The translations under genes were made by a program, and so were the position numbers. Below the pieces are notes generated by a model. The model was not told where the DNA came from. It worked only from the letters and a program-made list of their open reading frames with translations, and made no database searches. This document shows positions 511 to 40,885 of a stretch of 64,000 nt of DNA, piece after piece. Every line of letters begins with the position of its first letter. The stretch's first letter is position 1. Origin of the DNA: Candidatus Bathyarchaeota archaeon (GTDB lineage Archaea; Thermoproteota; Bathyarchaeia; Bathyarchaeales; Bathycorpusculaceae); NCBI GenBank assembly GCA_963767735.1, contig CAVYES010000008.1, forward strand, positions 96,001 to 160,000. The letters run 5' to 3'.

Positions 511-2888
511 ACGCTAACCTCTACATCCCCCGCAAAGCCGGGTACGCGCTCTATGAAGTTGCAGTAGCAAAAGCCAGCGACCAACAACTCATCGAAATCA
601 GCAACGAACTCGCCTTAGGCTTAAACCTGCAAGAAATGAAGAGCATACAAGCCTACTTCAAAGCGGAAGGCAGAAACCCAACAGATGTGGAACTGCAAAC
701 CATCAGCCAAACATGGTCAGAACATTGCTACCATAAAACCTTCAAAGGAAAAATCCAAATCGGCGGCAAAGAAATCGAGAGCCTATTCAAAACCTTCATT
801 GCAAAAGTCACAAAAGAAATCAGGGCGCCGTGGTGCTTCAGCGTCTTCGAGGACAACGCGGGCATTGTCCGCTTCGATAAAGGTTATGGAATAGCAGCAA
901 AAGTTGAAACACACAACCACCCTTCGGCTGTTGAACCCTTCGGCGGCGCAGCAACCGGCGTTGGCGGCGTAATTCGAGACATCTTAGGTGTCTGGGCTGA
1001 CCCCATCGCATGCACAGATGTTTTAGGTTTCGGACCATTAGACTACGATTACAACAAGCTTCCTGCAGGAGTAAAACACCCAAAATACGTTTACATGGGC
1101 GTCACCGCAGGCATCAGCGCGTATGGCAATAACATGGGTATCCCAACAGTCAACGGAGCAATATACTTCGACGAAAGCTACACAGGCAACGTCACCGTCT
1201 ACTGCGGATGCATAGGTCTACTGCCACTAAACAAATTCACTAAAAATGCCAAACCAGAACACATAATCGTTTTAGCAGGCGGAAAAACAGGACGCGACGG
1301 CATCCACGGCGTCACTTTCGCCTCCGCCGAACTAACTGAAAAATCAGAAGAAATCTCCCGTCCAGCAGTGCAAATCGCCGACCCGATAGAAGAAGAAAAG
1401 GTCAAACGTGCGATAATTGAAATCCGCGACCTACAATTGGCATCGGCAACAACCGACCTTGGCGGCGGAGGCTTGTCCTCAGCAGTCGGCGAAACCGCTG
1501 AAAAATTCGATTGTGGAACAACCATCGAGCTTGACAAGGTACCGTTGAAATATCAGGGTTTGGCGCCATGGGAAATTTACATTTCAGAATCCCAAGAAAG
1601 AATGCTCATAACAGTACCACCTGAAAACCTCGAGCGGGTTATGGCGGTTTTTGAAAAAGAGGACGTTCAAGCCACAGCAATTGGCAAACTTACAACCGAC
1701 CGCCGCTTACAGCTTAATTTTAATGGTGAGAAAGTTGCCGACATGGACATGACTTTCCTGTTTAACCCCTGCGAAAGCACGAAAACGGCAACCATCGAAA
1801 CCCCAAACTTCACGGAACCAGAGTTTCCCCAGCCAGAAAACCTAACAGAAACCCTTCTGCAGCTTCTTTCGGCTCCAAACATTGCCAGCAAAGAAAGCGT
1901 CATACGCACTTACGACCATGAGGTAAAAGGAAACACCACTCTCAAACCCCTACAAGGAGAGTACGCTGGACCAAACGATGCAGCTGTGTTGAAACCCCTT
2001 GATGATTCATGGAAAGGCTTAGTTATTTCGTGCGGAATGAACCCGAATTACGGAAAAATTGATGCTTACTGGATGGCTGCTTCAGCTATTGATGAGGCAG
2101 TTAGAAACAACGTTGCCGTCGGAGGAAGAAGAATTGCGCTGCTGGATAATTTCACGTGGGGAAACCCTGAGAAGCCAGAGCGTTTGGGCTCGCTGGTAAG
2201 AGCCTGCGAAGCATGCTATGACTATGCCAGGGCGTATAAGACCCCGTTTATCTCGGGAAAAGATAGCCTCTACAACGAGTCCCCTCTTGGACCAGTTACG
2301 CCGACACTTCTAATTACCGCCATAGGCATAATCCCCAACATTCAATTCACCACCTCGATGGATTTGAAAGCAACAGACAACCTGCTCTATATCATCGGGG
2401 ACACATTCAATGAGCTGGGCGGTTCGGAATACTATAAGCTCAAAGGCCACTTAGGCGCAAACGTGCCCAAAGTGAAAGGAGCCAAAGCTAAACGCACATT
2501 CAGAACCGTCACTAAAGCCATCGATTCAGGCTTAATCAAATCCTGCCATGACCTTTCCGAAGGCGGGTTAGCGGTGGCGACGGCGGAGATGGCGTTTGCA
2601 GGCGGATACGGCTTAGAGTTAGATTTAGATAAAGTGCCATGCAAAGAGTTAGCGCGAAATGATTTTGTATTGTTTTCAGAGTCAAACAGCCGCTTCCTTA
2701 TGGAAGTCTCAGAAACTGACAGGCAGGAATTCGAATCTTTGATGAAGGGCAAAGGCTGTTGCCAAATTGGCAAAGTAACCAAAGACCAGAAACTGCTCAT
2801 CCACGGATTAAACCAAAAAATAGTTGTGGACGCCTCACTTTCAGAGTTGCGGCGTAGTTGGAAAAAAACATTAAGCGGGGAATCCTGA
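507..2888 (+). CDS. purL: FGAM synthase subunit PurL
   Basis: QTWSEHCYHK, KVETHNHPSAVEP, GRDGIHG, SESQERM and ISGKDSLYNE motifs. Confidence 0.98.
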   Translation: MNANLYIPRKAGYALYEVAVAKASDQQLIEISNELALGLNLQEMKSIQAYFKAEGRNPTDVELQTISQTWSEHCYHKTFKGKIQIGGKEIESLFKTFIAKVTKEIRAPWCFSVFEDNAGIVRFDKGYGIAAKVETHNHPSAVEPFGGAATGVGGVIRDILGVWADPIACTDVLGFGPLDYDYNKLPAGVKHPKYVYMGVTAGISAYGNNMGIPTVNGAIYFDESYTGNVTVYCGCIGLLPLNKFTKNAKPEHIIVLAGGKTGRDGIHGVTFASAELTEKSEEISRPAVQIADPIEEEKVKRAIIEIRDLQLASATTDLGGGGLSSAVGETAEKFDCGTTIELDKVPLKYQGLAPWEIYISESQERMLITVPPENLERVMAVFEKEDVQATAIGKLTTDRRLQLNFNGEKVADMDMTFLFNPCESTKTATIETPNFTEPEFPQPENLTETLLQLLSAPNIASKESVIRTYDHEVKGNTTLKPLQGEYAGPNDAAVLKPLDDSWKGLVISCGMNPNYGKIDAYWMAASAIDEAVRNNVAVGGRRIALLDNFTWGNPEKPERLGSLVRACEACYDYARAYKTPFISGKDSLYNESPLGPVTPTLLITAIGIIPNIQFTTSMDLKATDNLLYIIGDTFNELGGSEYYKLKGHLGANVPKVKGAKAKRTFRTVTKAIDSGLIKSCHDLSEGGLAVATAEMAFAGGYGLELDLDKVPCKELARNDFVLFSESNSRFLMEVSETDRQEFESLMKGKGCCQIGKVTKDQKLLIHGLNQKIVVDASLSELRRSWKKTLSGES

Positions 2889-3703
2889 TGAACCAAGAAG
2901 AAATCAGAGTCTGCGTTTTGCGTGTCGGAGGAACCAACTGCGATGCAGAAACTGAGAGGACTTTTTTGGAGTTAGGTGTCCATGCGGAGACTTTGCACGT
3001 TAACGAGCTGATAAAACGCAAAAACCTGCTTGATTATCAGATGCTGGTTTTTCCAGGCGGCTTCTCATTTGGCGATTACGTGCGTTCAGGCGTCATTTTT
3101 GCACGGTGGCTCAGCGCCAAATTGGGCAGGGAGATTGAAACTTTTATTGATGAAGGCAGACCGATTCTGGGCATATGCAACGGCTTTCAAATACTGGTTG
3201 AATATGGTTTGCTTCCGGGCTTCGAAGGAATGAGCGCTTATCCAGAGGCGACATTGACAACTAATGAGCCAGCGGGCTTCAAGTGCCAGTGGGTTTACCT
3301 CAAAAACGAGAATAGAGGAAAATGCATGTTCTCAAGCAAAATCCCAGCTGGAAAGGTGGTGAGGATGCCGATTGCCCATGGAGAAGGCAGGTTGCTTTTC
3401 CCCAAAGAGAAGGAAAAGGAAATACTTGCAAAATTAATCGATAATGACATGGTGGTTTTCCGTTACTGCGACAAAGGCGGCAACGTTGCCGACGGCAAGT
3501 ATCCAGCAAATCCGAACGGCGCCTTTCATGACATCGCAGGCATATGTAACAAGGAAGGAAACATTTTCGGTTTGATGCCTCACCCAGAAAGAGCACTTTA
3601 TTGGTGGCAGCAACCTGACTGGACACGCCAACAGCAAATGCTACAATATGGCGACGGAAAACTAATCTTCCAAAGCATAATCGACAAACTAACCCAGAAA
3701 TGA
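2888..3703 (+). CDS. purQ: FGAM synthase glutaminase subunit PurQ
   Basis: GTNCD, PGGFSFGD, GICNGFQ, AHGEG and MPHPER motifs; the ATG at 2888 overlaps the purL stop (TGATG). Confidence 0.97.
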   Translation: MNQEEIRVCVLRVGGTNCDAETERTFLELGVHAETLHVNELIKRKNLLDYQMLVFPGGFSFGDYVRSGVIFARWLSAKLGREIETFIDEGRPILGICNGFQILVEYGLLPGFEGMSAYPEATLTTNEPAGFKCQWVYLKNENRGKCMFSSKIPAGKVVRMPIAHGEGRLLFPKEKEKEILAKLIDNDMVVFRYCDKGGNVADGKYPANPNGAFHDIAGICNKEGNIFGLMPHPERALYWWQQPDWTRQQQMLQYGDGKLIFQSIIDKLTQK

Positions 3704-33175: not shown

Positions 33176-34021
33176 ATGAAAACAAAGGTAATTTATTCAG
33201 AAAAATGTTTAGGCTACGGTACATGGCACATTGAAGGACCACAACGAGTAAAAATTGCATCTGAAATCCTGAAAGCAAAAGGTTATGAGTTTTTGGAGCC
33301 AACGCCTGCAAGTGAAGAAGACTTGTTAACTGTTCATGATGCGGATTACCTTTGGAACCTAAAGAAAGGTTTGGTTGAAGATTCAGATACACCTGCATAC
33401 GACAAAATCTACGAGTTTGCCAAGCTTTCGGTTGGCGGTGCACTTTTAGCCTCAAGAATTAACGGTTTTTCGCTTATGCGTCCGCCAGGACATCATGTTG
33501 GCAGAAATGGCGCTGCTTTGGGCGTTTACACGCGTGGGTTTTGCTATCTCAACAACATTGCGATAGCTGTTAAAAAGTTGGGCAAAAGAACCCTGATTCT
33601 GGATATTGACGGACACCACGGCAACGGAACTCAGGAGATTTTTCAAGGTGACAAGAAAATCCTTTACGTTTCTCTGCATCAATCGCCAAATTATCCTGGA
33701 ACCGGCTCTTTCGCTGAAGGTAATACTGTTAATTTTGCGTTGCCAGCAAATTGTGGTGGAAAACTGTATTTGGAGACGCTTGAAAAAGCCTTAGGAACGG
33801 TTGATTTGGGCAGGTTTGAGGTGATTGCAGTTTCTGCTGGTTTCGATACGCATCTAGGTGATTTAGCATCTTTAGGCTTAATTGAACAAGATTATTTTGA
33901 AATTGGCAAAAGGGTTGCTTTGCTCGGGAAGCCCACGTTTTTTGTTTTGGAAGGAGGTTACATAGGTGAAAAGGTTGGGGTGGATATTGATTTGTTTTTG
34001 AAAGGTTACGAAGAAACATAA
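33176..34021 (+). CDS. Histone deacetylase/acetylpolyamine amidohydrolase family protein
   Basis: RPPGHH, GFC..NN, DID.HHGNGTQ, SAGFD, LEGGY. Confidence 0.92.
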   Translation: MKTKVIYSEKCLGYGTWHIEGPQRVKIASEILKAKGYEFLEPTPASEEDLLTVHDADYLWNLKKGLVEDSDTPAYDKIYEFAKLSVGGALLASRINGFSLMRPPGHHVGRNGAALGVYTRGFCYLNNIAIAVKKLGKRTLILDIDGHHGNGTQEIFQGDKKILYVSLHQSPNYPGTGSFAEGNTVNFALPANCGGKLYLETLEKALGTVDLGRFEVIAVSAGFDTHLGDLASLGLIEQDYFEIGKRVALLGKPTFFVLEGGYIGEKVGVDIDLFLKGYEET

Positions 34022-34033
34022 TTTAGGAAAAAG

Positions 34034-34654
34034 TTATTTTTGTCTTTTCGCCATTGCCTTCTTATTTAACGTTTCAAGTGTCTGTGTGACTTTTTCAGAG
34101 CGTTTCTCTGCAACTGCTAACAAGGGCTTCCAGTCTTTATTTTTGACCGTAATTGTTAGTTGGTCGCATTGACCAGGTAGTTTTTCTAGTGCGCCGTTGA
34201 AGAGTTTTTCTGCAGCTTCATCTGAATCCACTATTTCCAGTGCTTCTTCTGGGCAGGCCTCTTTGCATTTTGGTTCGCCTTGGCAGAGGTCGCATGCAAT
34301 GGCTTTTCCTGTGTCACAGTTGATGGTGATTCCGCCATGCTCACAGGCTTGTACGCACCAGTCGCAACCTTTACATTTTTTTTCATCTATGAGCAGTAAG
34401 CCCGTTTCTTCTGATTGTGATAGTGCATTTTCCGGACATGCTTTGACACATCGGGCATCTTTGCAGGCTCGACATGAAAGTGCAAAGTTGAAGAGCGGCG
34501 CCATGCGGACAACTCGGATTCTGGATTTCATTGGGTTCCAGATGCCTTCGCCTTTTTCCAGCGTGCAAGCATATTCGCAGATCCCACAGCCAATGCACTT
34601 GCCTGGGTCAACGGCTACGAATTTTCTTTTTTGTTCGGTTTTAGCGGATTGCAT
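34034..34654 (-). CDS. 4Fe-4S dicluster (DmsB/CooF-like) electron transfer protein
   Basis: Four Cys clusters: CIGCGICEYAC, CRAC..CVKACP, CKGCDWCVQAC, CDLC..C..ACP. Confidence 0.9.
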   Translation of the reverse strand: MQSAKTEQKRKFVAVDPGKCIGCGICEYACTLEKGEGIWNPMKSRIRVVRMAPLFNFALSCRACKDARCVKACPENALSQSEETGLLLIDEKKCKGCDWCVQACEHGGITINCDTGKAIACDLCQGEPKCKEACPEEALEIVDSDEAAEKLFNGALEKLPGQCDQLTITVKNKDWKPLLAVAEKRSEKVTQTLETLNKKAMAKRQK

Positions 34655-34805
34655 TTTGAATCAGCCTTTTGATGTTTGAATATTGTGCGCGCCATTAGCT
34701 TTTAACCGTTACTTATAAAAAATGATTTTTTGATGAAAAACTTGCTCTGCAAATAATTTGCATCTTATCGGCGATAAGCGTTTGAAATAAAAAAAGGGAA
34801 AGATG

Positions 34806-35516
34806 CTATAGCTGTTTTCCGCATTGGGGGCAATAAGTTGCATCTGGCTTTACTTGTGCGCCGCAGTAGGAGCAGTATCGCGCTGTTTGAGATGGCTGTG
34901 ATGTAGTTTCTGTAGTGGAAGGCTGAGTGTAACTGTAGGGTTGAGAGGTTTGTTGTTTCTGTTGCGGAGATTTCATAGCAAAAAAGCCAATTACTGCAAA
35001 TATCCAAGCGATGAATATCAGTATTAGGCCGATGCCAAACAATATTGTCAGTAATGAGCCCCACCAAAGTAGGGTGCTCGCAGTTGTAAACGAGTGTTCT
35101 CCTGATTTCTGCGCAAGCGCGTTGAAGGTTTGTTTTAGGTGCACTGCTGCAAGTACATAGAATATGAAGGCAATGATAATCCCGCCAAGGAAAACTGCTA
35201 ATCCTATTCCGAATCCTGCCGTGAGTGTAAAGCTTGAATTAAATTTAAAGCCTGTTGCGGTTCCAACGCCGATTAATATTCCTGTAATGGCTACTGCCAC
35301 AGCTATCAAAGCGATTATGTAGTATTTGACGCCTGTCAATGCGTTCTGATAGAGTTCGTTGTCTTGATAATAATTTGCAAGTTCCTTGAGTCCTCTTAGA
35401 AGCAATATTACACCGATGATTCCCAATACCCATCCGACGTAAGGAACTATACCGAGTATAAGCAGTATCGATCCTTCGCCACACAATGTTTTGCTGTATT
35501 CGAAACTTGTACCCAT
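34806..35516 (-). CDS. DUF996-family membrane protein with C-terminal zinc ribbon
   Basis: K.L.G.GSIL...P..G.VL.IIG.IL, multiple TM helices, C-terminal CSYCG...CPQCG. Confidence 0.8.
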   Translation of the reverse strand: MGTSFEYSKTLCGEGSILLILGIVPYVGWVLGIIGVILLLRGLKELANYYQDNELYQNALTGVKYYIIALIAVAVAITGILIGVGTATGFKFNSSFTLTAGFGIGLAVFLGGIIIAFIFYVLAAVHLKQTFNALAQKSGEHSFTTASTLLWWGSLLTILFGIGLILIFIAWIFAVIGFFAMKSPQQKQQTSQPYSYTQPSTTETTSQPSQTARYCSYCGAQVKPDATYCPQCGKQL

Positions 35517-35577
35517 TTGTTTTTTTCCTCCTAATTTTTGATTCCTGAAAACCATACAAGTCATAGGCGGGTTATAG

Positions 35578-35634
35578 CCCTAACAGTTAGAGTTACAGAT
35601 CCAATGTTTAGAGCTGCACCTCTAAGAGTTAGAG
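35578..35634. promoter_or_regulatory. Three tandem imperfect palindromic operators (CTCTAA-N3-TTAGAG) at 21-bp period
   Basis: ccctaa-cag-ttagag (35578), atccaa-tgt-ttagag (35599) and ctctaa-gag-ttagag (35620) in a divergent intergenic region. Confidence 0.65.
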
Positions 35635-35737
35635 TCATAAGTAAACCAGCGAATTATAGTGAAAACATGGAAAGAAAATTTAGCTGCAGAGCTTTGTTTA
35701 TCTTATCGTTGTTGGTTAGCCGGAGCAGTGGATGTAA

Positions 35738-36214
35738 GTGTCTAAGCCGCGTGGAATAAGCGCTGATATTCAATCGCCTAGAACGAAGCTGCTATACTTC
35801 ATCTATTCTGCCCCAAATAGCAGAATTAGGGCTGAACCAGGCGTTAAATCAAGCGTCTCCTCTGCATTAGGCTACAAGTCAGATGGACATTTTCATTATG
35901 ACTGGAATTACTTAATGAATGCCGGTATGATAGAGGAAAAACAAGGCTATTACCTTGTGACCGATGAGGGAAAAAAGGAGTTTGCTTTGCATTCAACAGC
36001 TTCGAGAAGTAACTCGGTGATGATTTTTCTTGGAATTGCCATTGTTGCTTTTACTTTTGGGCTTGAACTGGGAATTCTTCCCATAATAAGTGTAACATTC
36101 TTCGGGATAGCGCTAATCGCTATAGGTTCCGTGTTTCTGATTATTGACCGAAAAAAGAGACCGCAATTAACGCCTGAAGCCAAAGTTTTACTCAAAGAGT
36201 TAAATCACCACTAG
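35738..36214 (+). CDS. Putative membrane-anchored winged-helix protein
   Basis: L.NAGMIEE..GYYLVTDEGK wing motif followed by two hydrophobic TM segments. Confidence 0.65.
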   Translation: MSKPRGISADIQSPRTKLLYFIYSAPNSRIRAEPGVKSSVSSALGYKSDGHFHYDWNYLMNAGMIEEKQGYYLVTDEGKKEFALHSTASRSNSVMIFLGIAIVAFTFGLELGILPIISVTFFGIALIAIGSVFLIIDRKKRPQLTPEAKVLLKELNHH

Positions 36215-36240
36215 AACCAACACTCAGTGAAAAGAACCTT

Positions 36241-36257
36241 TGGTGCGGAGGGTGGGA
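36241..36257 (-). repeat. Displaced tRNA-Leu 3' end with CCA (outermost att-like repeat)
   Basis: tggtgcggagggtggga; 36243-36257 is identical to 39457-39471, and the minus strand reads TCCCACCCTCCGCACCA. Confidence 0.85.
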
Positions 36258-36533
36258 CATCCACCTTATTTTACTGGTAAAAAATATACCTGTATGCCGT
36301 ACGAGAGTTCCAATTTCGCTCAGGCTGCAGTCAACAGTAGTAGACATGGCTTTCAAGCTTTCGAACCAATTCTTTTTGACTTGCCCCTTAAAGGTGATAG
36401 TAGTTAGAGACTCAATGCGGTACCTTTGAATTCATGGTAGTTTGGCTGACAAAAACGCAGTACAGTTATGCAATTAGCGTGGGCTGTAACTCAGCTTATA
36501 CCTCAATTTTTACTCTGAACCGAGCACAAATAG

Positions 36534-37010
36534 TTAGGTTCGTTTCAGAAAGGCTTTGGCGACTTCATGCGCCCAGTTTTTTGTTTTCTCCAGTTCTCCG
36601 TCTTTCAGTTGCATTTGATTTATCTTGCCCTCCACGTAAGCCGTTAGGGGGGGCGAAACAATCTCGAACCCCAGTTTCCGAAGTTTGCTTTCCATTGTTT
36701 TAGTAGCACTTCCAATGCCTCCTATCCTGGATTTCACTTCTGTGTCAAAAACGGCTGCGAACTTGCCAGAAAATTCTTTATCTTTGAAACTACCAAGGAA
36801 TTCCATTATTCCTTTCGTTGCTCTAAAATACATTTTGGGCGCTCCAACGACCAGACGATCATAACTGCTGACTGTTGTCCGATTAACATTCTCAATGGAT
36901 ATAGACTCAGCCTCAATTCCTTCACCCTTCAGGATATCGCCGATAGCTTCAGCGACCTTCGCTGTTAACTTCATAGGGGAAACCGAGTCGTATACAACTA
37001 AAACTTTCAT
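36534..37010 (-). CDS. Flavodoxin-family protein (cargo of segment 1)
   Basis: MKVLVVYDS....T.KVAEAI, YD.LVVGAP, GK.AAVFDT, ELEK...WA. Confidence 0.85.
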   Translation of the reverse strand: MKVLVVYDSVSPMKLTAKVAEAIGDILKGEGIEAESISIENVNRTTVSSYDRLVVGAPKMYFRATKGIMEFLGSFKDKEFSGKFAAVFDTEVKSRIGGIGSATKTMESKLRKLGFEIVSPPLTAYVEGKINQMQLKDGELEKTKNWAHEVAKAFLKRT

Positions 37011-37139
37011 TCAACAACACCTTCCAACAATCTAGTCACTTCTCCCTTAAGAGAGTAACTAAAGCAGACCAAAGTTTCGAGCCGATCGTAAAAATCGAGT
37101 TTACTTTGCCAGATTAAGCCTGGAATAACCCTGAAATCG

Positions 37140-37178
37140 TGGTGCGGAGGGATAGGTTTACATTCACGTTTAAATTTC
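37140..37178 (-). repeat. att-like repeat 2 (tRNA 3' core plus conserved palindromic arm)
   Basis: tggtgcggaggg-at-aggtttacattcacg-tttaaatttc; 34 of 37 nt match 38279-38315. Confidence 0.85.
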
Positions 37179-37276
37179 ACACAAGAAAAGCCAATGAAAT
37201 CTAATCATCACGCCATTCTCTAAACATTGGGCAAGCTGGACCGGACTTCTCCCAAACATAGAAAACTCCGCAGCTT

Positions 37277-37497
37277 CAAGCTGAAATTGCTGCTGGAAAC
37301 AAGAAAGTCAGCGTTTTAGGAGAAGCGGTTGATCAACAATGTTTCCAGTTGAATCTAGTGATCTTGCACCAATAATCCTCGGAGAGGACATAAGATTATT
37401 TGAAAAGTTGAGTTCAAGACCAATTGAGTTGGAAAGATTTGAGGTTACCTCAATCGCTGGTGTTACAAGTCTTCAATTCAAGGTAGTAAACAGTTAG
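37277..37497 (+). pseudogene. Decayed C-terminal fragment of a DHFR/RibD_C-family gene
   Basis: Hand translation: QAEIAAGNKKVSVLGEAVDQQCFQLNLV / (frameshift) DLAPIILGEDIRLFEKLSSRPIELERFEVTSIAGVTSLQFKVVNS*; no 5' half found. Confidence 0.7.
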
Positions 37498-37584
37498 TGC
37501 GCCGTGAAAAAAGTTTAAACGCTTGGCTAAAGCTAGTAAAGTAATAAGGCAAACAATATTTTTCAAGCGCGGAAGAATGATACT

Positions 37585-38193
37585 ATGAGAAAAATTATTG
37601 TCTTATCTTTTATAACACTCGACGGCATCATGCAGGCTCCTGGTGGACCCAAAGAGGATATAAGCGGCGGCTTCAAATACGGTGGATGGGCAGTTCCGTA
37701 TTTTGACGATTTTGCGGGCAAAGTCATGAGCGAGCAGATGGGACATCCGTTTGATCTCTTGCTCGGTCGAAAGACCTACGACATCTTCGTCAACTATTGG
37801 CCTGATCATAATGACCCAAAGGACCCTGTCGGCTCCGGGATCAACAAAGCAACAAAATTTGTGGCTTCCCGCTCACTCTTCAAATCAGACTGGGCAGGCA
37901 CTGTAATGTTACAAGGTGATGTTGCTGAAGCAATAAAGAAGTTAAAACAGCAATATGGGCCGGAGCTTCAAGTTCATGGAAGCGGCAATCTCATTCAGAC
38001 GCTCCTGAAACAGGATTTGGTTGATGAATTGTGGCTCAAAATCTTCCCAATAACGCTCGGCTCTGGGAAGCGGCTATTTGCCGACGGAACAGTATCGTCT
38101 GCATTTACGCTCATAGAGTCCAAAACCTCCCCGAAGGGAGTGATTATCGCATCCTACAAGCGAGTTGGAAAGGTCGAAACAGGATCGTTTTGA
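37585..38193 (+). CDS. Dihydrofolate reductase-like (RibD C-terminal domain) protein (cargo of segment 2)
   Basis: MRKII..F.TLDG.MQAPGG, LLLGRKTY, V.GSG.L.QTL...DLVDE..L...P..LG.GKRLF. Confidence 0.9.
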   Translation: MRKIIVLSFITLDGIMQAPGGPKEDISGGFKYGGWAVPYFDDFAGKVMSEQMGHPFDLLLGRKTYDIFVNYWPDHNDPKDPVGSGINKATKFVASRSLFKSDWAGTVMLQGDVAEAIKKLKQQYGPELQVHGSGNLIQTLLKQDLVDELWLKIFPITLGSGKRLFADGTVSSAFTLIESKTSPKGVIIASYKRVGKVETGSF

Positions 38194-38278
38194 ACGAATT
38201 TAAAGTGGCAAATTTGCAATCGTGACCTATTTTTCTGAAATAGCCCATAATCAAACTCTATTTGGCGAAATGGGCAAA

Positions 38279-38319
38279 GTGCGGAGGGTGAGGTTTACAT
38301 TCACGTGTAAATTTCGCCC
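38279..38319 (-). repeat. att-like repeat 3 (tRNA 3' core plus TTTACA-N6-TGTAAA palindrome)
   Basis: gtgcggagggtg-agg-tttaca-ttcacg-tgtaaa-tttcgccc; the first 12 nt are identical to 39457-39468. Confidence 0.85.
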
Positions 38320-38365
38320 AACGAGCCGCGAGCAATTTGTCATTAATCGGAATTAATCGAAGGCA

Positions 38366-39164
38366 TCAGGAGATGCTCTTTGACTTACGTTTCCTGTTAC
38401 GAATATACAAAACCGATGCGCCAGCTGCCACAACTGCTACCACGGCTGCAACGACAACGTACATGGCAAGAGTTGTGGTTGAAAGAGTGGAAGATGGAGC
38501 AAGAGTGGCAATTGGCCCGATGGAACTTTCCTCCCACCATGCGACAGTCGAATTGACTGTTTCGACTGCCTGAGACATATCTTGTTGACTGAGTCCTCCA
38601 GAATCAGTAATCGTCTGGTTTGCCTGCAGCAAGGCGGTGCTGTTACTTGCGAGGTCTTGAACCTCAACCAAGCCCTCAATTACCATCACATTAGCGGTGC
38701 CATTCTCATATGCTGCCGCAGTAAATTCAGTTCCCCGAACCCCAACAACAGCTGTCACACCAATATCAGCATCCCAATTATCGGATCCACCAGTTGCGCT
38801 TTCGATGTATGCCCAAAACCTACCTAACCAGGAGATAAAGGAGGTGGTGAAGGCCGTGAGGGTCATTATAAGCGACAGTTGTATTCTGATCAAATACGAT
38901 TTCACCGCCTGAGAATTGGATTAACAGTACACTATTCGGTCCTGTCATAATAGTGTCCCCTAAACTTATAGTGTCAGAGGGAACTAAAGGTGCCCATTCA
39001 ATGCCTCCATTGGAGCTTATCTGGACTGTCCCAGACACCCTTTGAACGGTAATAGGTTGCTCTGTGGACCCATTAACTGCGGGTGCAAGTGCTGGAATTG
39101 ATGTGAATGCCGCCGCTACTATGATAGCCGCCATGATTAATGCCATACTATAACTGTAGCCCAC
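38366..39164 (-). CDS. Secreted FecR-domain protein with C-terminal TM anchor, frameshifted at ~38830-38880 (cargo of segment 3)
   Basis: Signal peptide, VSG.VQI, LGD.I.TG.NS...I.F (ORF 38820..39275), then AVVGVRGTEF..V.V.EG.VEV and TM + RKRK (ORF 38366..38905). Confidence 0.75.
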
Positions 39165-39457
39165 ACTTGCCCCTCCGCAAAGTTCTTCCAAGTAAAAACT
39201 TTCAATCTCTAATTTAAAACCTTTGCAAATATGCCTAAAAAGTCGGTTAGATACAAAGTTGCACAAATCAAGCAACTCAAGGTTAGCTGAGTTGCATCTA
39301 GCGTATTCAAAGCATGCTGTATCCCATTGATCAGGCGCTTGTTAGAATAAGCACATGACCCCTTGAAATCATGTCTAAACTCAGCGCGATTCGCGAAAAG
39401 GCTTTACTTTCAAAATAGGTAGCATTCAGGCTTTATTTTGCAAAATGGGGGCAAAAG

Positions 39458-39542
39458 TGCGGAGGGTGGGATTTGAACCCACGAACCCCTGCGGGATAGG
39501 AGCCTCAGTCCTACGCCTTTGACCATGCTGGGCGACCTCCGC
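39458..39542 (-). tRNA. tRNA-Leu(GAG), CCA not encoded
   Basis: GCGGAGG/CCTCCGC acceptor stem, TAGGA-CTGAGGC-TCCTA anticodon arm, long variable arm, GTGGG-TTCAAAT-CCCAC T-arm, discriminator A. Confidence 0.96.
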
Positions 39543-39826
39543 AAACATATTTTTTGCTGATTGAGGTTGGTGCGAAATATAGAATTAGTCATGACATTTA
39601 AAGACTTTACTTTGCAGGTTGACTGTTAAGTGTTAAATGTGTTTATTACTGAAAAGGTTCCATGGGCAAGCTGATATTTGTAATTTTCCTGATTACATGC
39701 GAACGCTTAACTTGGCACAGTCTTGTTAAGAACCTCAATAAGCACAAACGTTAACATTTAAGTTCGATGTTTGCAAGACGCTTCTCTTATATTCTCCGTT
39801 TTCCCATATTTGGGGAAGGGAAGAAA

Positions 39827-40885
39827 ATGACCGCAAAAGTTGACCAGTCCCGCCCGAAAGATTGCAAGGAATGTGCAGAGAAAAATCTGGAAGTTGACTG
39901 CTGGAACCCGGATAGAATGCTTGATGCATTAATGCACAATCACGATAAGGTTGAGCAGGATTGGATGGATAAAGGCTTACCGAAACTAGTAGACGAAATG
40001 ATGGCTAATTACCAAATCTTCGGTGGCATGGATCACCTTGAAGGGCGAGACTTGCCGTCAAAAAAAATAGTTACTGAAGTGTTAGAAGATTTATTCAGAA
40101 TTCTTTTCCCGGGCTATTTGGGTAAGGAAGAGATTACCAAGGCCAACGTAAAATATCATCTTGGCACGACTTTAACCTCGGTTAACACACGGCTCACCGA
40201 AGAAGTCAAGAAAAGTCTAAAGTATATTTGCCGGAAAATAAGCGGGTGCCCACAAGATGTGTGCCAAAGGAGAGCCGACGTCGTTGTTAAAGAGCTTCTC
40301 GAAAAGCTGCCTGAAATTAGGTCAATGTTAAGCGGAGACATCCAAGCCGCTTATGCAGGAGATCCAGCAGCGATAAGTATAGAAGAAGTCATTCTAAGCT
40401 ACCCATGTGTATTGGCGATAACGACTAACAGGATAGCCCACGAACTTTACCTTCAAGGCGTCCCATTGATTCCGAGGATAATGAGCGAGCATGTGCATTC
40501 CTTAACCGGCATAGATATTCATCCGGGCGCAAAAATAGGCAAAAACTTCTTTATCGACCACGGCACCGGAGTAGTCATCGGGGAAACCACAGAAATAGGC
40601 GACAACGTCAAGCTTTACCAAGGGGTAACCTTAGGCGCGCTGAGTTTTCCAAAAGATGAGAAAGGAAATATTATCAAAGGAAGAAAGAGACATCCAACGG
40701 TTGGAAGTAATGTGGTTATCTATTCAGGCGCAACTCTTCTTGGACCAGATGCAATAATCGGTGATAACGTGGTCATAGGCGGAAATGTCTGGATAACCTC
40801 ACCAGTTGCTTCAGGAACAACAATTACCATTGCTGCACCAGAACAAAACTATAAAAAAGAAAAACACTCGGAAAAATCAAACTAG
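39827..40885 (+). CDS. cysE: Serine O-acetyltransferase (long form)
   Basis: [41 protein letters not shown]; start trimmed to MTAKV. Confidence 0.92.

Follow-up and report, generated by a model that had tools for sequence, protein, structure and literature searches.

Small recombinase-free units with conserved ends, probably integrative, stacked at the 3′ end of a tRNA-Leu(GAG) gene in a soil archaeon of the Bathyarchaeia

The window analysed here is a 64-kb stretch of genomic DNA from a soil archaeon of the Bathyarchaeia. ARAGORN recognised one tRNA gene in it, a tRNA-Leu(GAG) on the minus strand at 39457-39542 (Rfam tRNA, 52.5 bits), which serves as the integration target, and an Rfam scan of positions 34500-40000 returned nothing besides this gene. 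One 10-mer, GTGCGGAGGG, which is complementary to the 3′ end of tRNA-Leu(GAG), occurs exactly on the plus strand at 36243, 37142, 38279 and 39457, and the spacing of these cores gives units of 899, 1137 and 1178 bp (units 1, 2 and 3), as a preliminary description of this DNA had stated. The repeated core covers the acceptor strand, the discriminator and C74 of the tRNA. A scripted count on both strands found four copies of the 10-mer in the whole 3,044,997-base genome, all of them at this locus. At the far borders, the repeats of the tRNA 3′ end are co-oriented with the tRNA, with similarity over 30 nt at 80-83%. A hexapeptide transferase gene (by Pfam) lies on the 5′ side of the tRNA gene, and beyond it are open reading frames that, judged by eye, resemble an Lrp/AsnC-type regulator and GMP synthase.

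Each of the three units carries different cargo. Unit 1 (36243-37141) contains a flavodoxin gene on the minus strand (36534-37010; Flavodoxin_1, 27.8 bits at a cut-off of 25), and unit 2 (37142-38278) contains a RibD_C gene for a DHFR-fold reductase on the plus strand (37585-38193; 81.4 bits). Unit 3 (38279-39456) contains a frameshifted gene for a FecR-like membrane-anchored protein, read on the minus strand in two overlapping frames (38366-38905 and 38820-39275). The flavodoxin and DHFR-like genes of the preliminary description were therefore borne out by Pfam, as was the mixed orientation of the cargo (strands minus, plus and minus), whereas the FecR domain scored 18.4 bits, below its cut-off of 24, in a broken gene. 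A homologue in another species (G052) is an intact 264-aa open reading frame that scores 23 bits against the same cut-off of 24.

Units 2 and 3 share both of their ends. The distal end of unit 2 (att copy B, plus strand, 37142-37190) consists of the 10-nt core followed by an arm, here called arm B (GGTTTACATTCACGTTTAAATTTC...; nhmmer E 8e-10), and the distal end of unit 3 (att copy C, plus strand, 38279-38327) has the same arrangement of core and arm B (nhmmer E 1.4e-8). Arm B includes an imperfect inverted repeat around a 6-nt spacer, which reads TTTACA..TGTAAA in copy C. These left ends match at 88% over 43 nt (37142-37184 and 38279-38321), and three differences were counted over the 37 nt for which a 34/37 match had been claimed. 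The tRNA-proximal ends, termed type-2, lie on the plus strand at 38231-38278 (...TATTTGGCGAAATGGGCAAA) and 39407-39456 (...TATTTTGCAAAATGGGGGCAAAA); about 55 nt before each core are alike, with one 3-nt gap and approximately 70% identity by eye, in close agreement with the similarity of ~55 bp reported earlier. Att copy A (plus strand, 36243-36284) is different. Because its match to the tRNA 3′ end is limited to 15 nt, after which it continues into another arm, designated family A (with TTTTACTGGTAAAA), unit 1 stands outside the family of units 2 and 3, and the cassette family proposed for the array has to be restricted to the latter two. Units 2 and 3 belong to the main (arm-B) family, and unit 1 has a family-A distal end. 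The family-A arm type recurs on contig C6, beside four displaced end copies that stem from another tRNA, and the junction at att copy A has near-identical matches in about 12 genomes of the genus (query positions 1470-1528). Among the loci of the family, cores of distal copies carry point changes. Such mutated distal cores, and the frameshift in the FecR-like gene, are as expected of decaying DNA.

Comparison with relatives revealed the empty site. In six of them (G002, G010, G022, G012, G020 and G011), the conserved left flank ends at window positions 34721-34767 and the tRNA follows 75-684 bp further on. The insert had been thought to start at 36241; the relatives place its start near 34770 instead, and the inserted DNA is approximately 34770-39456. 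The block at 34770-36242 is an older insert distal to units 1-3, containing a gene for a DUF996/zinc-ribbon membrane protein on the minus strand (34806-35564; Pfam DUF996, 85.1 bits) and one for a 158-aa membrane protein on the plus strand (35738-36214). No recognisable att remnant was seen at its left edge, and G062, G052 and G050 have the same gene pair on the distal side of their tRNA-Leu arrays. Among the relatives, 15 loci contain the tRNA, and 11 of these showed a single core copy at no more than one mismatch. The tRNA gene ends in ..GCACCA in the empty-site genomes versus ..GCAC followed by a type-2 end in this genome, G003 and G004, so that the type-2 end of unit 3 stands in place of the encoded CCA. 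Like the repeats, the empty site is a direct observation.

Cassette content at the same tRNA differs between species, and entire units reappear in other genomes, bounded in the same way. A copy of unit 2 in G063 is 90.9% identical over 1192 bp and directly adjoins tRNA-Leu(GAG), with flanks at 75-81%, and a copy of unit 3 in G052 is 91.35% identical over 1237 bp, with flanks at 80-85%; both alignments stop at the junctions. Variation was also found in a soil sequencing run (X3), in which a 252-nt contig joins 38275 to 39454 and skips 1178 bases, exactly unit 3. This contig has no mismatches on 38113-38275 and only 15 ambiguous letters at the joint, although the joint is a single short contig at low depth (5.18), and the same run also contains pieces of unit 3. 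The joint could alternatively have originated by recombination between two similar junctions. Both the whole-unit copies in other species and the variant without exactly unit 3 are established directly by these comparisons. No circular junction was seen among the assembled contigs of public runs.

The ends of units 2 and 3 are not confined to this locus. Of 61 genomes of the genus, 23 contain arm B, the distal end common to both, at 58 places in total, and the reversed pattern, used as a control, had no occurrences in the same 61 genomes. Among genome contigs (genome_contigs), arm B was found in 39 stretches, 37 of which were titled Bathyarchaeota or Bathyarchaeia, and 93 stretches were found in metagenome contigs; viral contigs yielded no copy. 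In all there were 148 distinct arm-B junctions, with acceptor-stem cores from tRNA-Ser(GCT) (92), tRNA-Leu(GAG) (27) and a Leu(TAG)-like tRNA (8). The neighbouring end was type-2 at 31 of the 148 junctions (20 times on Ser cores and 8 times on Leu(GAG) cores) and type-1 at 30. Twenty arm-B loci were fetched, and nine had a tRNA-Ser(GCT) and two a tRNA-Leu(GAG) whose orientation and side agree with the model; these tRNA-linked loci hold 1-3 units each, of 0.8-6 kb. The search for end motifs at other tRNAs and in relatives, suggested in the preliminary description, thus uncovered a family of small integrase-free units with conserved ends well beyond the tRNA-Leu(GAG) locus. This family, its ends and the presence of differing cores on the same arms are observed directly.

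Family members range from 0.66 to 7 kb and often contain a single gene. None of 30 cargo proteins scanned had a recombinase domain, and this lack of recombinase genes is likewise established. Other Pfam families were matched by 24 of the 30, among them ABC transporters, flavodoxins, pirin, YceI, CDGSH, SnoaL, MFS and HSP20, and the functions seen were mostly in redox, stress and transport. The cargo is unrelated from unit to unit, as an all-against-all BLASTP of 82 open reading frames formed only six small clusters. A 7-kb unit in G003 contains genes for a peroxidase, AhpC/TSA, FUR, a Rieske protein, a DDE transposase and PNPOx, and no integrase.

We also searched for a recombinase that might act on these units. 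The statement that the window has none was upheld: no PF00589 match of this genome lies on contig C8, and tblastn of 14 integrase open reading frames of this genome against the 64 kb gave no match at E <= 0.01, nor any integrase fragment at either end of the cassettes. No integrase was found at tRNA-Leu(GAG) in this genome or in the loci of 15 relatives. In the six genomes with complete PF00589 lists (G000, G003, G055, G052, G044 and G018), no match lay within 25 kb of an arm-B site, and among the 150 listed of 325 matches genus-wide only one was within 10 kb of arm B. G076 and one metagenome contig (L158) have a 295-aa tyrosine integrase (PF00589, 53.9 bits) in an array with arm-B units, and its start codon falls inside the tRNA-Ser core. 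This genome has 16 PF00589 matches, including a relative 62% identical to the G076 integrase. One integrase frame in this genome is open through a tRNA 3′ part. The G076-type integrase superfamily (E <= 1e-25) was present in 20 of 23 arm-B genomes versus 31 of the 38 that lack arm B. It was absent from G052 and G012, both of which have arrays; its distribution does not track arm B. No helper integrase for arm-B units was identified among the candidates examined. Large integrase-bearing relatives with the same ends, which according to the preliminary description would make the units eroded remnants, were not found. The sole trace was a 58-aa integrase C-terminal fragment in one unit of a metagenome contig; autonomous elements are therefore the source of some units at least.

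We interpret the region, with a probability of roughly 0.6, as a stack of small, recombinase-free, site-specific integrative units that were inserted successively at the 3′ end of tRNA-Leu(GAG), are non-autonomous and are mobilised in trans. Read in the sense of the tRNA, a unit of the main family begins, right after C74, with a proximal end conserved over about 45 nt, continues with one to several cargo genes, and closes with a similarly long conserved distal end (arm B, about 45 nt) running into a 10-11-nt copy of the tRNA acceptor strand. In a circular form, both ends would meet at the core and create an attP that mimics the tRNA 3′ end. Through strand exchange inside this core, catalysed by a tyrosine integrase encoded elsewhere, the tRNA would be restored and the earlier 3′ end displaced outward together with any earlier units. 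Since earlier units would be displaced outward, the newest unit should adjoin the tRNA, and the X3 strain variant, which misses exactly the tRNA-proximal unit, is consistent with this order. What we infer from this arrangement is an intermediate in circular form, a crossover inside the core and the role of a tyrosine integrase in trans; mobilisation in trans has only this standing because neither a helper integrase nor a circular form was seen.

It is unlikely, in our judgement, that the units are instead inert relics of larger integrase-bearing elements, no longer mobile after internal deletions, with strain and species differences arising via homologous recombination between similar junctions and allelic replacement after DNA uptake. 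The unit skipped in run X3 is indeed bounded by junctions alike over ~55 nt, but exact identity of the junctions flanking unit 3 extends over only ~16 nt, which is short for homologous recombination. Decay is suggested by the mutated distal cores, by the frameshifted FecR-like gene of unit 3 and by the abundance of tRNA-end duplicates and broken integrases in this genome, together with integrase fragments in one 4-kb unit of a metagenome contig and in one family-A unit of G009. However, both ends are conserved on units whose cargo is unrelated and mostly intact, and the same arms occur with the cores of three or more tRNAs, a pattern that deletion by itself leaves unexplained. Between species, units 2 and 3 also keep 91% identity, compared with 75-85% for their flanks, and the similarity ends at the junctions. 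Use of a chromosomal housekeeping recombinase, or of a recombinase outside PF00589 and PF00239, would make a mobile helper unnecessary, as for the bacterial IMEX elements that exploit XerCD at dif, and would fit the arrays of G052 and G012, which have no G076-type integrase, the lack of an integrase near arrays, and the inverted repeat of arm B with its 6-nt spacer, which resembles a recombinase core site. We consider it quite improbable: arm B occurs in only 23 of 61 genus genomes, whereas a host site would be expected in all of them, the units sit at tRNA 3′ ends, which element-borne tyrosine integrases classically target, and this genome yielded no serine recombinase.

The likeness to an integron array, raised in the preliminary description, holds as an analogy only. 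Shared features are arrays of short cargo-only cassettes, here single-gene units of ~1 kb that lack a recombinase; in both, the latest arrival lies at the insertion site and the recombination function comes from elsewhere than the cassette. An integron-like platform in the strict sense, having attC-type sites that fold, its own adjacent integrase and a common promoter, is hardly credible and is contradicted by the fold, integrase and gene-orientation tests. Single-strand DNA folds of the four junctions were no better than those of shuffled sequences (z = -1.75, +0.81, -1.11 and -0.78), giving no attC-like hairpin; the 64-kb window has no integrase; the genes point both ways; and the repeats are copies of a tRNA end, itself the target, rather than attC sites.

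Several other systems resemble the arrangement that we favour, non-autonomous units mobilised in trans. CIMEs (cis-mobilizable elements), known together with site-specific accretion in streptococcal ICEs, are att-flanked, lack recombination genes, and stand in tandem beside an integrase-bearing element at the same site, on which they depend; they are bacterial, larger, linked to conjugative elements and few per site. Set against this general description of CIMEs, arm-B units share the att flanks and the lack of recombination genes, but no conjugation genes were seen in them and the same ends occur with several tRNA cores. IMEX elements of bacteria also have no recombinase of their own and form tandem stacks, at dif, where they use the host XerCD. 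From what is generally known of them, the likeness lies in the missing recombinase and the tandem stacking, and the difference in the dif target and the host Xer recombinase. In archaeal integrases of the SSV type ('suicidal'), the att site is inside the int gene. The integrase of G076 and L158, which begins in a tRNA-Ser core, is similar to these, whereas the cassettes have no int fragment at their ends. Suicidal archaeal integrases are the subject of a paper entitled 'Pervasive suicidal integrases in deep-sea archaea'. Islands placed at tRNA 3′ ends by tyrosine integrases (Islander, archaeal elements) likewise have a displaced tRNA 3′ fragment at the far end, a regenerated tRNA and a re-used site. 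The Islander paper counts 125 tandems with at least two members and 4 with at least three in a set of 3919 islands, with an integrase required for the definition of an island, and a paper on Thaumarchaeota describes arrays of tyrosine-recombinase elements formed through re-use of one site. Prochlorococcus tycheposons, as described in a preprint, are cargo elements at a few tRNAs, with neighbours separated by partial tRNAs, and in tRNA islands newcomers push older elements inward and degenerate remnants are scattered; the stacking in tRNA sites, the partial-tRNA separators and the displacement are similar to what we describe. The islands of the Islander kind each carry their own integrase, while here no recombinase was seen among 30 cargo proteins, and units of 0.66-7 kb often have just one gene.

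That elements integrate at tRNA genes, and that such insertions can form arrays, is textbook knowledge. What is unusual is a family of very small units, often of one gene, that are recombinase-free yet keep both specific ends. These units have cores of several tRNAs and an identity between species above that of their surroundings, and they far outnumber integrase-bearing relatives in the data examined. A literature search on such elements in Bathyarchaeia and other archaea, in which subscription journals were thinly covered, found no description. Integrase-based island tools such as Islander would miss these units. We can imagine, though we lean against it, that soil Bathyarchaeia possess a gene-cassette system that is an archaeal counterpart of integrons, in which the two arms recruit a trans-acting integrase and a swappable core of ~10 nt picks the tRNA. 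Were this so, cargo-only cassettes of 0.7-7 kb would be targeted to Ser-GCT, Leu-GAG, Leu-TAG or other tRNAs, one machinery would build and reshuffle accessory-gene arrays at several tRNAs, and single genes would be passed between species. To our knowledge, little is known of gene transfer in soil and peat archaea of the Bathyarchaeia type. A variable core joined to conserved arms would amount to natural retargeting of a tyrosine recombinase site, and the units, if mobile, would offer a concrete route for single-gene exchange in these uncultured, abundant archaea of soil and peat.

We examined the repeats at the 3′ end of tRNA-Leu(GAG) (39457-39542, minus strand), the sole tRNA in the window. 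The 10-mer GTGCGGAGGG, which is the complement of the acceptor 3′ strand, discriminator and C74 of this tRNA, occurs exactly at 36243, 37142, 38279 and 39457. These are the only four copies on either strand of the 3.04-Mb source genome (10 contigs), and on this count a chance repeat was dismissed as the origin of the core copies. With the tRNA as the reference copy, those at 37142 and 38279 are 83% and 80% identical to it over 30 nt, respectively, and 88% identical to one another over 43 nt; the copy at 36243 has 15 nt in common with the tRNA and diverges beyond. The ~55 nt preceding the core at 38279 are also similar to the ~55 nt preceding the tRNA. A flavodoxin and a RibD_C protein are encoded as cargo, together with a FecR-like protein, the gene for which is interrupted by a frameshift. 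The preliminary description of core repeats and cargo stacked at this tRNA is therefore borne out, with corrections to the family of unit 1, the extent of the insertion and the state of the FecR-like gene. The FecR-like gene is in two overlapping frames at 38820-38905 and is a single 264-aa ORF in the relative G052; a contig of soil run X3 lacks one base at 38831, within the gene. The split may reflect a genuine pseudogene or a mistake in the assembly. A 54-aa frame at 37333-37497 was considered as a remnant of a second RibD_C gene, and this was discarded because it had no BLASTP match to the neighbouring gene and no Pfam match at E ≤ 10.

The extent of the inserted DNA was defined from relatives. 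The hexapeptide transferase gene on the 5′ side of tRNA-Leu(GAG) has counterparts in 24 of 24 sampled genus genomes, and 20 of these 24 loci were fetched; tRNA-Leu(GAG) was found in 15, and three of the remaining five were truncated by contig ends. The empty site was found in six relatives (G002, G010, G022, G012, G020 and G011): their conserved left flank ends at 34721-34767, past the gene for a 4Fe-4S protein, and only 75-684 bp separate it from the tRNA. Therefore, approximately 34770-39456 is inserted DNA; the three proposed units are present, but the insertion begins 1.5 kb beyond the span originally claimed. In the empty-site genomes the CCA is encoded by the tRNA gene (..GCACCA), whereas in the source genome, G003 and G004 the tRNA reads ..GCAC and continues into TTTG.., the start of the neighbouring unit's end. 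Unit content at tRNA-Leu(GAG) varies between species. The closest relative, G004, has kept a junction resembling that at 37142 and has one 2-kb unit, which encodes a secreted repeat protein of 529 aa. A single unit is present in G018 (629 bp) and in G005 (702 bp), and G009 has two. The G003 locus holds a tRNA duplicate of 60 nt and an arm-B junction (arm B being the distal end of units 2 and 3), together with two units: one of 739 bp with a PIN gene, and one of 6959 bp with genes for peroxidase, AhpC/TSA, FUR, Rieske, a DDE transposase and PNPOx and no integrase. At the distal end of the insertion, a DUF996/zinc-ribbon gene and a gene for a 158-aa membrane protein (34806-36214) occur as a pair in many genus genomes at 64-84% DNA identity. 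Since this pair is distal to tRNA-Leu arrays in some genomes and at other places in others, it may itself be an old mobile unit.

Evidence bearing on movement came from a DNA search with 34770-39456 against 61 genus genomes. The whole of unit 2 (37142-38278) is present in G063 with 90.9% identity over 1192 bp (window 37125-38296), compared to 75-81% for the flanking chromosome, and this copy stops at the tRNA-Leu(GAG) 3′ end, making it the proximal unit there. Similarly, the whole of unit 3 (38279-39456) is present in G052 with 91.35% identity over 1237 bp and an intact FecR-like ORF, with flanks at 80-85%; it lies against a tRNA-Leu fragment of 54 nt, at a second site in inverted orientation and 13 kb from the real tRNA. 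The real tRNA-Leu(GAG) of G052 (L044/L101, C1:277135-290280) carries a 1-kb arm-B unit, and the 54-nt fragment with the unit-3 copy lies inverted beyond the conserved flank, an arrangement that looks like an inversion between two att sites. A SnoaL cassette that is tRNA-proximal in both G052 and G055 was set aside as evidence of transfer, as the genes are alike (78%) but the borders differ. Logan contigs of four public soil runs (X1-X4) were also aligned to 34500-40000, a comparison in which uncovered parts are uninformative. One 252-nt contig from run X3 matches 38113-38275 without mismatch and resumes at 39454, skipping 1178 bases, exactly unit 3. This joint has 15 ambiguous letters and comes from one low-depth contig, and unit-3 pieces are also present in the run. 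Exact identity common to both unit-3 junctions is ~16 nt, which is shorter than the 31-letter assembly words, and the joint should therefore reflect reads and not a collapsed repeat. No circle junction was listed among the assembled contigs of the four runs over this interval. The variable unit 3 in X3 and the proximal position of unit 2 in G063 agree with the proposal that the newest unit lies next to the tRNA.

The ends of the units proved to be widespread. Arm B, the sequence after the cores at 37142 and 38279, consists of GGTTTACAYYCACGTTTAAATTTC and ~15 nt further, and is found with other cores elsewhere in the source genome on contigs C4 (three copies), C5, C6 (three) and C8 (C8:191506). 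Allowing ≤3 mismatches, the pattern occurs at 58 places in 23 of the 61 genus genomes (0 for the reversed control). An exact-match scan yielded 39 stretches among 185,579 species genomes, 37 of them titled as Bathyarchaeota or Bathyarchaeia MAGs from soil and peat and the other two as Acidoferrum and Nanoarchaeia MAGs, and a further 93 stretches in metagenome contigs. A viral or plasmid source was rejected on 0 matches in viral contigs in the exact-match scan. Among 20 loci around genus arm-B matches, nine had tRNA-Ser(GCT) and two had tRNA-Leu(GAG); at all 11, the tRNA has the side and strand expected under an integration model, and one to three arm-B copies are present at intervals of 0.8-6 kb. 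Pooling the sequences gave 148 distinct 120-nt junctions with arm B, whose cores are those of tRNA-Ser(GCT) (92), tRNA-Leu(GAG) (27), a Leu(TAG)-like tRNA (8) or other or degenerate (21). The suggested check for the end motifs at other loci and tRNAs was therefore positive. On the opposite side of the core from arm B is the end of the next unit, which was type 2 at 31 junctions, type 1 at 30 (..GGCTGAATTTGGAAA), one of two rarer types at 11 and unclassified at 76. The type-2 end, ..CTCTAATTGGCAAAAGGAG, is the tRNA-proximal end seen at 38231-38278 and 39407-39456. Ser cores adjoin it in 20 cases and Leu(GAG) cores in eight, and it starts directly after C74 for both tRNAs.

The idea that all units form one family holds for units 2 and 3, which share arm B, but not for unit 1 (36243-37141), which has a different arm at 36243 and therefore belongs to another family. 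This family-A arm contains TTTTACTGGTAAAA and is common to the four displaced ends of another tRNA on contig C6 and to junctions in ~12 genus genomes. Many tRNAs of the source genome (on C5, C6 and C7) have displaced 3′-end copies downstream, and stacking of integrations is thus general in the source genome. The tRNA at C6:573019-573130 (minus strand) has four copies, at 571132, 557780, 537971 and 528835, all with the family-A arm; tRNA-Arg at C5:74218 has two displaced copies, and for tRNA-Pro at C7:67829 a copy is just 0.83 kb distant. Att-like junctions also form a second cluster outside the window, at C8:191316-191541, where a family-A junction 95% identical to window 36246-36284 is followed 190 nt on by an arm-B junction with a tRNA-Ser core; tRNA-like fragments are nearby at C8:194344 and C8:197292. 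Only fragments, and no intact tRNA-Ser(GCT), were found in the source assembly: the first 20 nt at C10:20013-19994, directly followed by a 445-aa integrase ORF (region C10:18589-20013), and positions 33-61 at C4:7246-7272, close to the array of three arm-B copies with which C4 begins. Either a gap in the assembly or an insertion within the tRNA may have disrupted this locus.

We also searched for a recombinase. The reported absence of such a gene from the window was confirmed: none of the 16 PF00589 matches in the source genome is on C8, the contig that holds the window (C8:96001-160000), and tblastn with 14 of its integrase ORFs returned nothing at E ≤ 0.01 in the whole 64-kb window. Integrase remnants in the array were rejected, as the same search gave only noise (E ≥ 0.14) in 34001-40000. 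The serine recombinase family PF00239 had no match in the source genome. Of 30 cargo proteins from nine arrays, 24 match Pfam families and 0 of the 30 scanned have a recombinase domain; the families include ABC transporters, GNAT, metallophosphoesterase, flavodoxins, YceI, CDGSH, pirin, SnoaL, PNPOx, cupin, MFS, alcohol dehydrogenase, MrfA-like helicase, PAS histidine kinase, HSP20 and glycoside hydrolase. Comparing 82 ORFs with one another by BLASTP gave six small clusters and no shared gene. PF00589 was absent within 25 kb of any arm-B site in G003, G055, G052, G044 and G018, and genus-wide one match lay <10 kb from arm B among the 150 of 325 matches listed. Integrase-like matches were present at four of 80 metagenome loci, as full or near-full genes in L152 and L158 and as fragments in L130 and L179. 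The tRNA-Leu(GAG) contig L130 carries two units with type-2 ends, one of 1083 bp and a larger one of 4015 bp that contains a C-terminal integrase fragment of 58 aa. In G076, the unit next to the tRNA in a tRNA-Ser array encodes a tyrosine integrase of 295 aa (PF00589, 53.9 bits), and an arm-B unit is present in the same array; L158 repeats this layout with a 0.66-kb arm-B unit (integrase gene at 2193-3077). A relative of the G076 integrase with 62% identity lies beside another tRNA on C6 of the source genome, in an array with two arm-B junctions. A phyletic link between arm B and the G076-type integrase was rejected (20 of 23 arm-B genomes vs. 31 of 38 without arm B); the superfamily is too widespread to be informative, and is missing from G052 and G012, both with arrays. 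Two integrase genes start inside the att core: in G076 (L105, C13, 3131-4018) the GTG start and the initial codons are complementary to the tRNA-Ser 3′ end, and at C6:582001-582927 of the source genome the frame is open through the tRNA 3′ part in the sense direction. Integration therefore parts the gene from its upstream region, the same separation as for SSV-type integrases. Identical 481-aa ORFs with a weak PF00589 match (24 bits, below cut-off) lie ~3 kb from the starts of two source contigs (C5:3082-4524 and C6:3080-4522), and similar 480-508-aa ORFs are near contig ends in G055, G052 and G044; these are probably a multi-copy element breaking assemblies.

The anatomy is that of tyrosine recombinase integration at a tRNA 3′ end. 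Crossover would occur inside a 10-12-nt stretch identical between site and element, so that the true T arm would stay on the tRNA side and the far side would bear the mimic supplied by the element. Each new integration would enter the regenerated tRNA, building a stack with the newest unit closest to the tRNA. Because the units lack a recombinase, the enzyme must come from elsewhere, and we infer that it is supplied from outside the units. Streptococcal CIMEs are integrase-free elements that rely on a neighbour's integrase. A host-encoded or unrecognised recombinase might instead act on the units, in an IMEX-like arrangement. The units could instead be immobile relics whose variation arises by homologous recombination, a view with which the mutated distal cores, the FecR-like frameshift and the rare integrase fragments are consistent. 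However, conserved paired ends on unrelated intact cargo and the switching of cores fit poorly with relics, as do whole units that are more identical than their flanks. The preliminary description likened the array to an integron, a likeness that goes no further than analogy: folding of the four junctions was in no case better than that of shuffled sequence, no integrase is adjacent and the genes are in mixed orientation, and a true integron is excluded on these grounds.

Elements integrated at tRNAs, their arrays and their decayed remnants are familiar from earlier work, including the Islander paper, the Thaumarchaeota paper and the tycheposon preprint. A search of the literature on archaea and Bathyarchaeia found no description of such elements, and the portion seen of one Bathyarchaeia paper mentions solely a provirus and islands. 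What is new is the combination of cargo-only units that are very small yet keep two conserved ends, a single family on several tRNA cores, units that far outnumber their autonomous relatives, and an archaeal host among soil and peat Bathyarchaeia. In arm B, two TAAAC motifs lie roughly one helical turn from each other and a TATA-like TTTAAA is also present, and copy C (the core and arm B at 38279) has a short inverted repeat. The occurrence of the same arms on at least three tRNA cores suggests that the core decides the target and that the arms are the part recognised by the recombinase or its accessory proteins. On the boldest reading, held tentatively and with a probability of about 0.3, these units may represent a tRNA-based cassette system with a programmable core.
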